From contig NC_057719.1 of NCBI RefSeq assembly GCF_004010195.1, positions 47,988,130 to 48,036,778 of the forward strand: a stretch of 48,649 nucleotides of DNA. The letters run 5' to 3'. Below are positions 2,295 to 29,010 of the stretch, in pieces; positions within the stretch are counted from its first letter, which is position 1; each line of letters opens with the position of its first letter. The translations under genes and the position numbers were made by a program. Source of the DNA: Chiloscyllium plagiosum. Its lineage: Eukaryota. Below the pieces are notes generated by a model, which saw only the letters and a list, made by a program, of their open reading frames with translations, had not been told where the DNA came from and did not search any database.

Positions 2295-2453
2295 ATTCAA
2301 GCTCTGTTGTTCTACTATGGGCTGACAGGGTATCATGGTTACTCATAGTGTCCACGCTCCCCACCTTGGTTACATGTGTTCCACTGAGGTTTGGCTTTTG
2401 GTCAGAATTGAAAAATGTGTTGCTGGAAAAGCGCAGCATCCAAGGAGCAGGAG

Positions 2454-2489
2454 AATCGACATTTCGGGCATAAGCCCTTCTTCAGGAAT
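2454..2489 (-). ncRNA. Minimal hammerhead ribozyme motif
   Basis: Reverse complement reads CTGAAGA-AGGGC TTAT GCCC-GAAA-TGTC-GATT. Confidence 0.6.
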
Positions 2490-2968
2490 GAGGAAGGTGT
2501 GCCAAGCAGGCTAAGATAAAAGATAGTGAGGAGGGACTTGGGGGAGGGGTGTTGGGAATACAATAGGTGGAAGGAGGTTAAGGTGAGGGTGATAGGCCGG
2601 AGAGGGGGTGGGGGCGGAGAGGTCGGGAAGAAGATTGCAGGTCAAGAAAGTGGTGCTGAGTCCGAGGGTTGGGACTGAGGTAAGGTGGGGGGAGGGGAAA
2701 TGAGGAAGCTGGAGCAATCTGCATTCATCCCTTGTGGTTGGAGAGTTCCTAGGCAGAAGATGAGGCGCTCTTCCTCCAGGCGTCGTGTTGCCATGGTCTG
2801 GCGATGGAGGAGGCCAAGGACCTGCATGTCCTTGGACCTCTCCGCCCCCACCCCCTCTCCGGCCTATCACCCTCACATTAATCTCCTTACACCTATCGTA
2901 TCCCAACGCCCCTCACCCAAGTCCCTCCTCCCTACCTTTTATCTTAGGCTGCTTGGCACACCTTCCTC

Positions 2969-3004
2969 ATTCCTGAAGAAGGGCTTATGCACGAAACGTC
3001 AATT
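2969..3004 (+). ncRNA. Minimal hammerhead ribozyme motif
   Basis: CTGAAGA-AGGGC TTAT GCAC-GAAA-CGTC, with one stem II mismatch. Confidence 0.5.
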
Positions 3005-3582
3005 CTCCTATTCCTTGGATGCTGCCTGACCTGCTGCGCTTTTCCAGCAACCCATTTTTCAGCTCTGATCTCCAGCATCTGCAGTCCTCACTTTCTCCTT
3101 TTGGTCAGAGTGGTCAGCTCCAAATCCTCACCACACTGGAAGTTACAAGTACAGACAGCACCCAACTTTAGAGTTCTGCCCCTACAGAGTCCAATGTTAC
3201 CTGACTTTGCCTCTGGTGCTTCACAGCTCCGAGTGCACTTGGCAGCTCAATTCCCACTTCAAATCCCAACCTTTGTGTGTGGGGGGGCTACCTCTCTTAA
3301 CAACCGGTTTCGGGCAGGGCTTTTGAGACAGGCACTACCTTGTCCTCTGGCTGTTTCAGCACAAGCAGCAGGTTCTTACAGCAGTTAATACAGTCACACA
3401 CTTATTCTCCACAGACATGCATTTAAAAACATTTAACTCAGTACTGTAGCAAATTAGAGATTACAATAGCTATAGCTTTTAAACTGTCCTTAGCCTGGTC
3501 TGACTTTTCCCGTTTGCAGGTACAAAGTGGTTTTTACCCTGGCTCCCCGATTGTGGCCATCGACCAGGGCACCAGTAATAAG

Positions 3583-6567: not shown

Positions 6568-7534
6568 TGTTGAGACCTTCATTATTTTTATTTTCATCAT
6601 TTTGGTTTGAAGATGAGACCTGAAGGTGACCTTTGAGTTATGAACATCAACTTGTTTTAAAAAAAAGGACAAGCTGTTATTTGTTTGAGGCCAGGCCTGG
6701 AACTAGTTGTAGGTTGATTTTTGTTCAAAGTACTTAATAGCCATCTCAATGTATTATGCCTTGCAAGGAGCTATGATGTCAATCAGTCTACCAAGGAAAG
6801 CGGTGGGAAAAACAGAAAGAGAAACCAAGGTTTGAACAGAAACAAAAACAGAAGTTGCTGGAAAAGTTCAGCAGCTTTGGCAGCATCTATGAAGAGAAAT
6901 CAAAGTTAACATTTCAAGTCCGGTGACTCTTCCTGAGAAACATTAACTCTGATTTCTCTTCACGGACCTGCTGAGTTTTTCCAACAACTTCTGTTTTTGT
7001 TTCTAATTTACAGCATCTGTAGTCTTTTGGTTTTTACAAAGTTTGAACAGGTTTTAAACTGTATTTTAGTCAAGAGAATTGTGGCTGCCAAAGCTACAGG
7101 ATGGCATCTGATTGCTGCCCGGTAATTCTCTTATTATCAACTTATCGGAAGTTCAGAGAGTAGAATCACTGTTTTCGGTATATTAGTGAATATTAATCAG
7201 AGCCTACTAGAAGCTCTTTGCATTTACTGGTGTCTTCAGAAACCAAGAAAGATGTAATCCCACGTGCCTGTGATATGATGGATCATGGAGAATGCTCAAG
7301 TCAACTGACAGTTACATCTCAGTTATTGTTCTTTTGATTTATCCCTAACATGTCTGTTTGTCTGTCTGTATTTGTATAAGTGGGGGATAGAAGTATTAGA
7401 TGAGAATGATCATGCAAAACCTTGATTAGTTTTTGGACTGCTCCACCAATTTGGACACAAACTCCCAGATGCTAGTAAGGGTGAGTTTGCAGGGTAAAAG
7501 TGCAGAGTTCGCAACCACCAATTCCATGTTAACA
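6568..7534. mobile_element. Possible solo LTR containing a nested PLE fragment
   Basis: Begins TGTTGAG and ends TGTTAACA, directly after the LINE fragment; no clean TSD. Confidence 0.3.
6840..7036. mobile_element. Inverted-repeat PLE-derived short element (second family)
   Basis: Arms AACAAAAACAGAAGTTGCTGGAAAA... / ...TTTTCCAACAACTTCTGTTTTTGTT; 14-bp TSD CAA(G/A)GTTTGAACAG at 6826-6839 and 7037-7050. Confidence 0.7.
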
Positions 7535-7850: not shown

Positions 7851-8300
7851 AGTGTCCTGTTACTTAACTGGTTTGATTCCAGCAGAAATGTCCTTAGGAA
7901 CTGAGTTTTAGAGAATAAACTTTTTTAAGGATTGAACATTTCCAGAGAAGTATAATTTGTGAGTTTAAAGAATTACTGTTCATTTCAGGTCCAGGTGACG
8001 ATGTGAACTTTGGATCTTAAACAGATAACTCAAAAGAAATATTAAGTTAGACTAATATGTTTTACATTGTAAGGTGTGCCCTGAACTGTTAGACCCAGCC
8101 TGTTACTGATTATATGTATATCTGTTGTATTACATTCAGAGGAATTTACTTCTTTAACATCATTTGAACAAAAGTCACTTCATTTTTGTTCAAAATGTGT
8201 TTCAGGGTAAATAAGGCCAACAACACCTCCGCTAAATATCCATGCAAATGGTTAAATTTATTTCAAACATTTTTTGTGTGCTTTGAGACAGAACCAGCTG

Positions 8301-8670
8301 CTTCCGCCTAGGAACCCTCCAACCACAAGGGATGAACTCAGATTTCTCCAGTTTCCTCATTTCCCCCCCTCCCCTCACCTTGTCTCAGTCCCAACCCTTG
8401 AACTCAGCACCACCTTCCTAACCTGCAATCTTCTTCCTGACCTCTCCGCCCCCACCCCCACTCCGGCCTATCACCCTCACCTTAACCTCCTTCCACCTAT
8501 TGCATTTCCAACGCCCCCTCCCCCCAAGTCCCTCCTCCCTACCTTTTATCTTAGCCTGCTTGGCACACTTTCCTCATTCCTGAAGAAGGGCTCATGCCCG
8601 AAATGTCAATTCTCCTGCTCCTTGGATGCTGCCTCATCTGCTGCGCTTTTCCAGCAACACATTTTCAGCT
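8301..8670 (+). mobile_element. Penelope-like 3' fragment (GIY-YIG tail FRLGTLQPQGMNSDF, pLTR, hammerhead at ~8576-8611)
   Basis: Homologous to 2407-2835; core CTGAAGA-AGGGC TCAT GCCC-GAAA-TGTC. Confidence 0.85.
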
Positions 8671-9227
8671 GGTTCAATGCTTGGTATGGGTAAAAGTGGC
8701 AGAAAGACCTAAATTGTACAATTTTATGAACATGAAGTTAAGTTCCCAATCCATTAATCAGTACCTTTTTCAAGTCTGTATCTACTTCATTTTAACTGTG
8801 AATCTAACTACTTTATGTTTACCAACCCAATAGTATGTTGTATCTTCAGTCTGTTTACTTGTCCTCTGTAATTGCCTAAACTTAAATCTAACAATGGAGT
8901 ATTTCCAGCTGGACCGATAACAAAATGACTTAGTGAAAAGGCCTGAATATAAATTCTCTGTACTTCTACCACAATGGACTTGACAGACTGCATAGCCCCT
9001 GACCATCTTGTAGAATTATGTGATTCATTTGGCTGCATTTTATGAATCCCTAACAGTATGTTTGAAGATGGAGTCTCATAAAATGCAATGCACAGTCTTT
9101 ACACAATTTTCTCTCTTGCTGGCGACTTTTCTCTCACTTTACAGTGGGCAAGAGAGACATCATGCAGCCTGTCCACACTTGTGCCTATGGAAGTACTTAA
9201 GTGGCAATTAGCTCTGGCTAATATAAA

Positions 9228-12128: not shown

Positions 12129-12277
12129 TTGCACTTGCATGTTGCAGCATGCTACCAATCAGTGACAAAGCCCCATACGCATAGCCAATGTACATTGCAG
12201 AATAATGTAAAGTCTCTGATTTAATTCAATTTTGGAGTAGTTCAATGCGGAATGCTTGAGCTTCAGAGCTATGTCCA
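12129..12277 (+). repeat. Copy 1 of a ~149-bp direct repeat
   Basis: Near-identical to 14098-14245. Confidence 0.9.
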
Positions 12278-14097: not shown

Positions 14098-14245
14098 TTG
14101 CACTTGCATGTTGCAGCATGCTACCAATCAGTGACAAAGCCCACATATATAGCCAATGTACATTGCAGAATAATGTAAAGTCTCTGACTTAATTCAAGTT
14201 TGGAGTAGTTCAATGCTGAATGCTTGAGCTTCAAAGCTATGTCCA
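14098..14245 (+). repeat. Copy 2 of the ~149-bp direct repeat
   Basis: Near-identical to 12129-12277. Confidence 0.9.
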
Positions 14246-16452: not shown

Positions 16453-17599
16453 AACTACTGAGTCACCGTGCTACTCGTACCTACTCATTAGATTTGCTCA
16501 AAATTTGAAAATTATGCAATGTGTACAACACTGTTGCTTCTTCAGCTCTGCTGAAATCTCTAGTGTAAGAAGAAATCATTTCCTGGAGTCTGTCTTAACA
16601 TTTGGAGTTGGATTCGAGCTGTTACATCTCAGACATAAAACATTTGCACTCAGAGCTTTGACATGACAAAATATTTCTGGCAAAAAGAAACAGTATTGCC
16701 AAGGACCAAGGTAAAAGAGATGTGCCAGAATCGCAATGAACTAAATCAGAATCAGCTTTAGCCCCAAAACAACTGAAATCATTGTTTTGTCAGACTTCAA
16801 AATATTTCCTGTAGCTTTTAAGCCAAGTAAACACAGGAATTGTGACTAAGTTAAATATCTGATTACAGTATTACAAATTGTTTCTGTTTGGTTTACAAAA
16901 AAAGAGATGTTTTGTTGGTGGAAGAACTTTGTTTTCTTTTACCTGAACTGCGAAGGGGGCTTGCTTCAGGAATTATATTTTGCTGAGTTGAGGCAATCCT
17001 TCTTAATCCTTGAAAATGTAATCCTTTAATCAATTTTGATTTGCCTGATTCATTTTAATGACCATGTGACCACAGTTTACATACCAACACATGCAGGTAC
17101 ATGTTAAACGAAATGCTGCACATACTTCTCTGCACAACATGTTAAATGAAATGCTGCACAACACACCCAGACAAAAAAAACTGAACAACATTCTTGTCGC
17201 AACATGATGTAACTAAAGATGACATCCAAAACTATTTTACAGAGACAGTAAGAATGCTACATTTAAGGAGTTTTTCACTACTTTTAAAGTAGGCCTGTTA
17301 GTTAACCTCAGTTAGTACTATTTTATTTCCATTTGTATAATACTATTTTACATTAGTTTAGAATAGCAGAAGACTATTTCATGAGAAATAACTATAGTCC
17401 AGCTAAGAATGCAGTGGGTGGACTCACCCAGACACCAACCTCAGCTGAAATGCTTGTTCGCTTCCAGTTTCTGTGCTTTAATGAGAAGAACTTGATACTG
17501 GCACTGTGCACAATATACATTATAATGTATCACATGCTGTGAAACAATTTTTTGCATTATTCAAAATTATTTATCTAGTCTCTACATCATAAAAACATT

Positions 17600-18262
17600 G
17601 TGGAGGTAATATAGAAGGTACAAAATGATTTATTCAAGGGATATTAGAACTGACAGTATATACTAAGCAAAAAAGATTGAACAGTCTGGGATTTTCTTCT
17701 CAAGAAAATGAAAGGTTGAAGAGACCTGATAGTGCTCTTCAAGAGTATGAAAGAGTTTATAGGATACACGTAGAGAATATAATTTCACTTCTTCTGAGCC
17801 TTCAAATATAGATTTTAATTATCAGAAAATCACTAATAAATCCAATTTGGAATTTAGGAGAAATTTATTCACCCAAGTAGTAGTTATAATGTGGAACATA
17901 AGTAGGCTGCAAAAAGATGTTGAAGAGTGTGGTGTTGGAAAAGCACAGCCAGTGAGGCAGCATCCAAGGAGCAGGAGAATCGACGTTTCGAGCATAAGCC
18001 TTTCATCAGGAATTCCTGATGAAGCACTTATGGTCGAAATGCCGATTCTCCTGCTCCTCAGATGCTGCCTGACTAGGTTTGCTTTCCAGCACCACACTCT
18101 TCTACTCTGATATCCCGTATCTGCAGTCCTCACTTTCTCCTACAAAAAGATGTTGATAGGTTCAGTAAGTGGACAAAGATTGGCAAATGGAGTGCAATGT
18201 GTGAACATTTTGGCATAAAAAATGAAAAAAGAACATATTAGTTACATATGAGAGATTTCAAA
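17600..18262 (+). mobile_element. Old CR1 fragments (host of the palindromic PLE insertion)
   Basis: FRRNLFTQVVVIMWN and RLQKDVDRFSKW..WQMECNV CR1 motifs. Confidence 0.65.
17924..18142. mobile_element. Palindromic PLE-derived element with back-to-back hammerheads
   Basis: Arms inverted about CAGGAATTCCTG (centre 18010-18015); hammerhead cores at 17982-18009 (-) and 18016-18043 (+); 14-bp TSD CAAAAAGATGTTGA at 17910-17923 and 18143-18156. Confidence 0.85.
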
Positions 18263-18269
18263 GCTTTTC

Positions 18270-18835
18270 TTCATTCACTCGTGGGACATACATACTGCTG
18301 GCTGACCAATATTTATTATCTGTCCCTAGTTAGCCTTGGAAAGATGGTGGTGAGCTGGCTTCTTGTACTCCTGATGTCCATGTGCTGCAGTTGACCCAGA
18401 GAGATAATTCTCAGTGGATCAGTGAAGAAATGGCAATATATTTTGAAGTTGGGATGGTCAGTGGCTTGGAGGGGAACCTGCAGGTGGTGGTGGTATTCCC
18501 ATGTAAATGCTGCCCTTGTCGTTTGAGATGAAAATGGTTGTGAGTTTGTAAGATGCTGTGTAAGGACTTTTTGTGAATTTCTGCAGTGCATCCCATAGAT
18601 GGTACACACTGCTGCTAGTGACTGCTGGTGGTGGAGGGTGTGGGTGCTTGTGGATCAGGTGTCAATCAAGCATACTGCTTTGCCCTGGATGGTGTCAAGC
18701 TTCTTGAGTGTTGTTGAGCTGCATCCATTCAGGTAGGCAGACAGTATTCCTCCATGGTCCTGACTTGTGTCTTGTACTTCAGGAGTCAGGAGGTGAGTAA
18801 CTTGCCTCAGCATTCCTAACCTACTCTTGTAGCCA
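18270..18835 (-). mobile_element. Zenon-like CR1-group LINE 3' fragment
   Basis: Same family as 5880-6567; encodes ..CTIYGMHCRN.. Confidence 0.75.
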
Positions 18836-20144: not shown

Positions 20145-20600
20145 AATATTGGGTAACTGTCTGTGTGGATTTTGTATATTCTCTGTGTAGGCAAAAGTGA
20201 GTACTGCAGATGCTGGAGATGAGAGCTAAGAGTGTGGTGCTGGAAAAGCACAGCTGGTCAGGCAACATCCGAGGAGCAAGAAAATCGATGTTTTTCATCC
20301 TGATGAAGGGCTTTTGCCCGAAATGTCAATTTTCCTGCTCCTTGGATGCTGCCTGACCGGCTGTGTTTTTCCAGCACCACACTCTTGGCTCACTACACTC
20401 TTCTCTGTGTGTCTACATGGGCTTTCACTGGGTGCTCTGATTTCCTCCCACAGTCTAAGGATGTGCAGGCTAGGTGGATTAGCCATAGCAAATTCAGAGT
20501 TATGGGTACAGGGTAAAGGTCTGGGTGGGATGTTCTTTGGAGCACTGCCACAGGCTCAATGAGCTGAATGGCGTCTTTCTGCAGTGTAGGTTCTATGAAG
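20145..20600 (+). mobile_element. HE1-type SINE interrupted by a PLE inverted element
   Basis: SINE body split at TTCTCTGTGT. Confidence 0.7.
20189..20400. mobile_element. Inverted PLE-derived element with intact hammerhead core (20300-20327, +)
   Basis: CTGATGA-AGGGC TTTT GCCC-GAAA-TGTC; 10-bp TSD TTCTCTGTGT at 20179-20188 and 20401-20410. Confidence 0.8.
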
Positions 20601-25853: not shown

Positions 25854-26055
25854 TAAAAATCACACCACATCAAGTTATAGTCCAACAGGTTTATCTGGAA
25901 GCATTAGGTGTCTGTGTGCTGCTTCTTCATCAGGTAGCTGTCACTCTGAAAGCTAGTGTTTACAAATAAACCTGTTGGACTATAACCTGGTGTGGTATAA
26001 TTTAAAAAAAAAAAACGTTTTGTCCACCCCAGTCCAACACACTCTCCTCCATATT
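25854..26055. mobile_element. Inverted PLE-derived short element (third family) with degenerate hammerhead
   Basis: Arms GTTATAGTCCAACAGGTTTAT / ATAAACCTGTTGGACTATAAC; CTGATGAAG on minus and GAAAGCTA on plus; perfect 13-bp TSD AAGAGACTGTAGT at 25841-25853 and 26056-26068. Confidence 0.75.
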
Positions 26056-27195: not shown

Positions 27196-27305
27196 AAAGT
27201 CGCGAGTGAGGTTCTGGAAAAGCACAGCTGGTCAGGCAGCATCCAAGGAACAGGCCAATTGACATTTTGAACTTCAGGTCTTCATCAGGAGCCCTCATTT
27301 TCTCC
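27196..27305 (-). mobile_element. Short PLE terminal fragment
   Basis: CTGGAAAAGCACAGCTGGTCAGGCAGCATCC..TTCATCAGG; 15-bp TSD-like TAGGATGAG(AA/CG)CATA at 27181 and 27306. Confidence 0.7.
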
Positions 27306-28009: not shown

Positions 28010-28340
28010 AGGCACGGTGGCTCAGTGGTTAGCCCTGTTGTCTCTGTGCCAGGGACATGGATTTAATTCCAGAGTTGGGCGACTGTGAGGAGTTTGCACA
28101 TTCTCCTGTGCCTGCGTTTCCTCCGGGTACTCCAGTTTCCTCCCACAATCCGAAGATGTGCAGGTTAAGTGAATTGGCCATGCTAAATTGCCATAGCGTT
28201 CAGGGGTATGTAGATTAGGTGCATTAGTCAGGGGAAATTTAGAGTAATTTGCAATGCCTGTGGGTGGGTTACTTTTCAGAAGATTGGTATGGACTTGTTG
28301 GGCCGAATGGCCTGTTTCCATACTGGAGGGATTCTATGAT
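28010..28340 (+). mobile_element. HE1-type SINE
   Basis: GGCACGGTGGCTCAGTGGTTAGC A-box start; tail GGGATTCTATGAT. Confidence 0.9.
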
Positions 28341-28669: not shown

Positions 28670-29010
28670 TCATAGAATCCCTACAGTGTGGAAACAGGCC
28701 CTTCGGCCCCACAAGTCCACACTGACCCTCCGAAGAGTAACCCAACCAGAACCATTTCCCCATACCCCATATTTACCCCTGAATAATGCATTTAACCTAC
28801 ACATTCATGAACACTATGGGCAATTTACTCCAGCCAATTCACCTAATGTGCACATCATGACTGTGGGAGGAAACCGGAGCACCCGGAGGAAACCCATGCA
28901 GACAAGGGGAGAATGTGCAAACTCCACATAGACAGTCACCCAAGGGTGGAATTGAACCTAAGTCCCTGGCACTGTGAAGCAGCAGTGTGCACCACTGACC
29001 CACCGTGCTG
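28670..29010 (-). mobile_element. HE1-type SINE
   Basis: Full-length reverse-orientation copy. Confidence 0.9.

Follow-up and report, generated by a model that had tools for sequence, protein, structure and literature searches.

We have analyzed a 219-bp insertion at positions 17924-18142 of a 48,649-nucleotide stretch of the Chiloscyllium plagiosum genome, referred to here as the window. The window is repeat-rich, vertebrate-like DNA in which one reading frame has a shark protein as its best match. The insertion is enclosed by 14-bp direct repeats, and it contains two inverted copies of the terminal module of a Penelope-like element (PLE). The features of the locus are as follows.

17897..18200, + strand: host site, a decayed LINE reverse transcriptase fragment interrupted by the insertion; protein-level match above 200 shuffles
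17910..17923, + strand: left target-site duplication, 14 bp; direct repeat whose last 5 bases resemble the arm continuation (4/5)
17924..18012, - strand: inverted copy, without tail, of the PLE terminal module (pseudo-LTR, or pLTR, end), by sequence comparison
17982..18009, - strand: left-arm hammerhead, minimal type I, with an undamaged core and ACGU retained; A in place of G10.1 and a weak stem II
18002..18023, no strand: centre, a perfect palindrome of 22 bp; at 18012-18013 the two arms share a self-complementary AT
18013..18100, + strand: direct copy of the same PLE terminal module as in the left arm, by sequence comparison
18016..18043, + strand: right-arm minimal hammerhead with an undamaged core; C in place of U16.1 and a stem II in which 2 of 4 pairs are broken
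18101..18142, + strand: PLE tail of 37-42 bp, lacking from the left arm; also found at the end of the insertions at 2407-3097 and 20189-20400
18143..18156, + strand: right target-site duplication, 14 bp; direct repeat

Architecture of the insertion

The direct repeat CAAAAAGATGTTGA is exact over 14 of 14 bases (17910-17923 and 18143-18156), with a rough chance of such placement of 2e-6, and the perfect target-site duplication reported in the initial annotation is confirmed. Its exact length is either 14 or 17 bp, because the first base of the left duplication (17909-17910) is not the same in the orthologous contigs of organisms B and C as in the window. The likeness of the last 5 bases of the left duplication to the arm continuation is possibly a priming microhomology.

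The two arms (17924-18012 and 18013-18100; 89 and 88 bp) are inverted about GGAATTCC and, across 89 aligned columns, show 13 substitutions and 1 gap. Inverted arms of ~90 bp with CTGATGA...GAAA cores had been described before, and this description stands: the cores are found at 18009 (-) and 18016 (+), with 6 bp between them. The unit had also been called palindromic and ~220 bp long; the size holds, but the palindrome is impure, with 37-42 additional bases (18101/18106-18142) on the right arm only that had been missed. Both arms share a rare T (17991/18034) at a position where the family has C in ~92%. The insert strand folds with -141.3 kcal/mol (z = -17), and none of 200 shuffles was equally stable. 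No frame of at least 120 aa overlaps the insert, and the reverse transcriptase and endonuclease frame that an autonomous PLE would have of its own is absent. The end of the tail (18128-18142) is a pyrimidine-rich run after CTCAC, which resembles a 3' splice site; introns are known in PLEs.

When the empty site is read across the duplication, it matches the C-terminal reverse transcriptase motif of two other LINE elements in the window with scores of 48 and 45. The higher score was reached by none of 200 shuffles at the protein level, and one of the matched elements has RVT_1. At the DNA level the empty site scores 39 against the LINE, which is not above shuffles (maxima up to 41). The earlier placement of the insertion inside a CR1 is borne out as a LINE match in protein but not in DNA, and the LINE at 17897-18200 is presumably a CR1.

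In organism C, one contig spans 17500-17947 with 17 differences and so covers left flank and the first 24 bases of the left arm; this falls below the 31-letter rule applied and only suggests that the insert may be present at the orthologous site. The flank contig of organism B ends at 17809 (8 differences in 310), and there was no empty-site joint among the 15 of 454 joints listed.

The parent family

BLAST within the window found 7 further arm copies in 6 other places (148; 2408 and 2969; 8576; 11164; 20180-20386; 27204), the two arms at 20180-20386 being tallied as one hit pair. The end of the left arm lies within a few bases of the ends of the tail-less copies at 148, 8578, 11166 and 27204. 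For three organisms, each with one DNA run, between 46,421 and 61,618 contigs per run fell on a 1-kb stretch, a count in which some contigs belong to the repeat at 18280-18500. Scans with the arm pattern found no loci in metagenome contigs, viral contigs or prokaryote genomes.

Longer copies have further terminal sequence before the arm, preceded in turn by a coding remnant. The remnant in the sister insertion (P0001; 2660-2836, - strand) matches the C-terminus of the shark protein P0002 with an E value of 1.2e-7 and 83% identity over 36 aa. P0002 shows YIDD and CxxC-type GIY-YIG motifs; the Pfam GIY-YIG match of P0002 scores 17.7 bits, under the 22.6-bit cut-off, and P0001 itself has no Pfam match. 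Among 19 phmmer matches to P0001, the 11 that were scanned against Pfam contained neither a reverse transcriptase nor a GIY-YIG domain, and P0005 is a spurious repeat protein. The homologue P0020 has a CX4CxxC linker that is partly seen in P0002; in the passages of PMC8557442 on this subject, a CX2-5CxxC linker before a CxxC-bearing GIY-YIG domain is a mark of Neptune and Nematis. The arm is assigned to the end of a PLE pseudo-LTR because longer copies run into this GIY-YIG-related remnant. The link is made in the sister subfamily, where the module adjoins the reverse transcriptase/GIY-YIG frame (2407-3097 and 8301-8670) and whose arm differs by 13-25% from that of the insert. To judge from these motifs, the parent was probably an endonuclease-bearing PLE of the Neptune type.

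Other insertions in the window

Eight hand-picked insertions were tested for duplications; the copy at 148 was left out since it runs off the window. Duplications of ~10-16 bp were found at 7 of the 8, the direct copy at 8301-8670 being the one without a clear duplication. The flanks of this copy (8291-8300 and 8666-8675) are 10-bp inverted copies of each other. Six insertions, from three sequence families, contain an inverted part: 2407-3097, 6840-7036, 17924-18142, 20189-20400, 25854-26055 and 27196-27305. Three of them are related to the insertion at 17924-18142.

2407..3097, no strand: sister insertion, long form; the inverted arm reaches the endonuclease frame and is followed by the direct arm and tail; ~12-bp duplication
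20189..20400, - strand: another short inverted insertion, from the subfamily of 17924-18142; its centre is a different one and asymmetric; 10-bp duplication
27196..27305, no strand: insertion of the same family in which a tail-less arm is joined to ~17 bp of inverted tail; the 15-bp duplication contains 2 mismatches

Each of the six has its tail on one arm, and all six junctions differ. Only the insertion at 17924-18142 has a symmetric junction with two whole cores. At 20189-20400 the centre reads TTCATC-AG/CT-GATGAA. The tail-bearing arm there is without the 13 bases of stem II, and the repeat that hosts this insertion is, we assume, SINE-like. The short arm of 27196-27305 consists of tail sequence, with 20 of 24 matches to the tail of 17924-18142, and this sequence is absent from its long arm (scores of 12 and 10, against 34 for self). 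The junction there is formed on ATCAGGAG against ATCTGCAG, with 6 of 8 matching. This insertion cannot be a fold-back of its long arm, since the short arm is made of tail sequence that the long arm does not contain.

The short inverted insertions at 6840-7036 and 25854-26055 belong to two other hammerhead-type families and have a one-sided tail, a 13-14-bp duplication and an asymmetric centre. Elsewhere in the window, a 150-bp stretch is repeated ~2 kb apart with 94.7% identity (12129-12277 and 14098-14245), no further copy being present among the self-comparison matches listed, and two SINE-like copies that are 77% alike (28012-28339 and 28670-29008) lie inverted with 330 bp between them.

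The centre in contigs and reads

Position 18013 is the largest loose end listed in all four runs, with 1099, 976 and 1120 contigs in the DNA runs (agreement 0.33-0.37); here family copies either end or continue into upstream terminal sequence. The depth at 18026 relative to that at 17991 is 0.22%, 0.27% and 0.44% in the three DNA runs and 3.2% in RNA reads, ratios that are rough because contigs break at perfect palindromes, there are mismatches beside 18026, and reads that fit two places favour the left arm. On this rough measure a small fraction of family sequence in the three genomes has the GGAATTCC centre.

Sixteen of the 24 pieces listed (the 24 longest of 165,166) bridge the centre by at least 31 letters on each side. 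These come from other loci, since they are 12-19% different from the insert, and among them the same centre spacing recurs. Two of the 16 are gapless and 14 have 2-13 gap letters at positions that are not given. Other centres are found among the 15 of 454 joints listed, for example 18008 to 18047 and 17973 to 18012, on opposite strands.

Hammerhead cores

The hammerhead positions named here (G10.1, C11.1, U16.1 and 15.2-16.2) follow hammerhead numbering. The left arm keeps the self-complementary ACGU, as had been noted initially, and the right arm reads AUGC in its place. A G10.1-C11.1 pair with an intact stem II is lost from both arms, through an A-C mismatch in the left and through 2 of 4 broken pairs in the right, and is intact in the copies at 2402, 8578 and 20180; the family letter at 18001 is C in ~86% of depth in run X1. 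A UH cleavage site and a palindromic 15.2-16.2 are present in the left arm (CG, UC) and absent from the right (UG, CC). In folding calculations the pairing probabilities of stem II were 0-0.70 in the left arm and 0.00 in the right, against 0.98-1.00 in the two better-kept copies that were folded. The minimal hammerhead motif was undetected by Rfam at E values up to 1, a search that gave 3 weak miRNA matches, all elsewhere; the hammerhead call therefore rests on features published for minimal hammerheads (passages of PMC4209133).

A transcript of either strand begins with the antisense arm and contains one sense core, in which CUGAUGA is predicted to be unpaired with a probability below 0.02; releasing this core from the hairpin would cost ~25 kcal/mol. 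The earlier statement that transcripts of both strands contain a core and can form a long hairpin is upheld, with the qualification that the core is buried. Since each transcript has a single sense core, hidden in the hairpin, and neither copy is free of damage, the hammerheads of this insertion are unlikely to be functional; here they are passengers. Cleavage by the two cores as a cis-dimer was rejected, as they are on opposite strands and the dimer model requires two sense copies. In RNA run X21 (one fragmented polyA single-cell run, ~2% read), no pile-up of read beginnings or ends was listed, a result that cannot decide self-cleavage. Family-like reads in the same ~2% fall on the arms in both directions, and none falls on the unique flank 17500-17907, which neither shows nor excludes expression of the locus.

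Origin of the palindrome

The insertion is very probably a PLE integration product whose palindrome was made during integration. Our preferred reading, to which we assign a probability of roughly 0.6, is that it is an old, dead product that contains the terminal module only and arose from two target-strand primings, the resulting cDNAs being joined head to head; that the primings were specifically two we hold to be moderately probable. The initial annotation had offered a minimal PLE truncation product as one explanation, and this is supported.

According to this reading, a GIY-YIG endonuclease would have nicked the target strands 14 bp apart, leaving the duplication now observed. Each free 3' end would then have primed reverse transcription on terminal-module RNA, a distal start giving an arm with its tail and a proximal start giving a tail-less arm. 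Both cDNAs would have halted at a preferred end near ATTCC, ~5 bases before the hammerhead core, where the ends of copies do cluster. Since both would end in GGAAT-3', annealing of the self-complementary AT followed by fill-in could yield GGAATTCC with no extra base. The arms have since decayed independently.

Duplication, inverted arm, direct arm, one tail and duplication form a published PLE pattern (passages of PMC3846280 and bioRxiv 2021.04.23.441226). The insertion shows the features of endonuclease-bearing (EN+) PLE insertions, namely a hammerhead module, an adjacent inverted 5'-truncated copy, a tail at one end (30-40 bp class) and a variable duplication. In the portions of PMC11167929 that concern the anole PLE protein, this protein cleaves and extends both strands in vitro, with two start sites that bound the tail; it is predicted to be a dimer, and it inserts in vitro even with a dead hammerhead. 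The start site did not differ between strands in that account (PMC11167929), and so the single tail per insertion is left unexplained by it. The preferred reading is also favoured by the six differing junctions with their one-sided tails and by the rare letter common to both arms, as expected if one source gave rise to them; the recurrence of this centre spacing at other loci counts against it.

Self-priming would also build the palindrome on landing, with one PLE cDNA or antisense template snapping back at a small palindrome and serving as its own template; the idea has been published on the basis of palindromes where inverted PLE copies join (passages of PMC3846280). It accounts for the rare letter common to both arms, which is as expected from one source, and the centre of 20189-20400 looks like a short snap-back that it may explain. 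It is unable, however, to make the insertion at 27196-27305, which is the best local evidence and favours two-strand priming over the published self-priming. The upstream parent sequence of 4 longer copies (CCTCATTCC, CTCTATTCC) appears to be without a stem that would leave a loop-free GGAATTCC, and self-priming does not explain why the inverted arm ends where tail-less direct copies end. For 17924-18142 we consider it rather unlikely.

The palindrome might instead propagate itself as a non-autonomous unit, one or a few masters giving rise to a hairpin RNA of ~220 nt that a PLE enzyme copies in full, perhaps as a subset with the GGAATTCC centre. PLE proteins are able to act in trans on pLTR-flanked sequence, according to passages of PMC3846280, non-autonomous PLE derivatives are described in parts of bioRxiv 2021.04.23.441226, and the centre-bridging paralogues in three genomes, with their two gapless members among the 16 listed, fit such a unit. 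A count of identical centres alone is not decisive, since a stop at ATTCC and annealing of AT would remake the centre independently and let it recur with no master palindrome. Against propagation stand the differing window junctions, the many other centres among the 15 of 454 joints listed, the small share of family depth held by GGAATTCC, left ends that vary by several bases among insertions, and a -135 kcal/mol hairpin that would bury the core. The self-propagating ribozyme retroelement suggested initially is therefore unsupported, given opposite-strand cores, their decay and six of six junctions that differ, and we regard propagation as improbable. We give still less weight to two independent stubs landing head to head, or to a later rearrangement (cruciform or repair) that duplicated one arm. 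The module is extremely abundant (46,000-62,000 contigs per DNA run) and the arms are 15% apart, but a single duplication flanks both arms, they are of the same subfamily with a common rare letter, and the one-tail layout is repeated in 6 insertions, all of which makes this origin very improbable.

Comparison with known systems

The insertion resembles the complex EN+ PLE insertions described in passages of PMC3846280, PMC8557442 and bioRxiv 2021.04.23.441226 in its head-to-head terminal copy, one-end tail, junction palindrome and ~10-15-bp duplication. It differs from those in that its copies are cut to ~90 bp, are non-coding and join in a symmetric way directly ahead of the hammerhead. With the minimal type I hammerheads of PLEs, as presented in parts of PMC4209133, it shares the core boxes, the extra base between 9 and 10.1, the lack of loop 3 and, in the left arm, the palindromic 15.2-16.2. 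That source also describes dual minimal hammerheads of Schistosoma, 100-700 bp apart on opposite strands, with most motifs tied to truncated PLEs; here the cores are 6 bp apart, both copies are mutated and stem II has a length of 4 bp. The portions of that paper covered here make no mention of sharks.

Like the non-LTR retrozymes (passages of PMC7229834 and bioRxiv 10.64898/2026.07.22.740005), the insertion is short, non-coding and pLTR-related, with a type I hammerhead and a long duplication. Those elements form head-to-tail tandems with same-strand ribozymes and circular RNA release, whereas the arms at 17924-18142 are joined head to head and give transcripts with a single sense core each. 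Identity with a retrozyme was rejected on the ground that there is a single head-to-head pair and not a head-to-tail tandem with same-strand hammerheads. A MITE has terminal inverted repeats that are symmetric and a short duplication of fixed length. That identity was rejected too, given the asymmetric tail, duplications of 10-16 bp and an arm mostly found unpaired. Inversions of L1 involve one RNA and parts that barely overlap. The parts at 17924-18142 overlap almost fully, so two RNAs or a re-reading of one would be needed. In other respects L1 twin priming, as outlined in passages of PMC9148063, is like the process proposed here, with both target ends priming and an inverted 5' part inside one duplication.

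In the main texts of the open-access papers and preprints covered, we found no account of miniature shark PLE insertions or of a palindromic hairpin retroelement. The motif may already be listed in supplementary data to PMC4209133 or to the 2026 retrozyme preprint, which sampled one cartilaginous fish. Two papers were found that bring together Penelope, twin priming and inversion, each with a single mention of Penelope.

Significance

As a single locus, the insertion at 17924-18142 is a mostly ordinary, dead repeat. A palindrome that was itself mobile would be a non-autonomous element of a new kind, although the evidence speaks rather against it. The origin of the inverted ends and tails of PLEs is called an open question in passages of PMC8557442 and bioRxiv 2021.04.23.441226. 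In miniature insertions of the present kind, the junction, the two outer ends and the duplication all fall within 250 bp, and such insertions form a very large population that is of some use for testing PLE integration.
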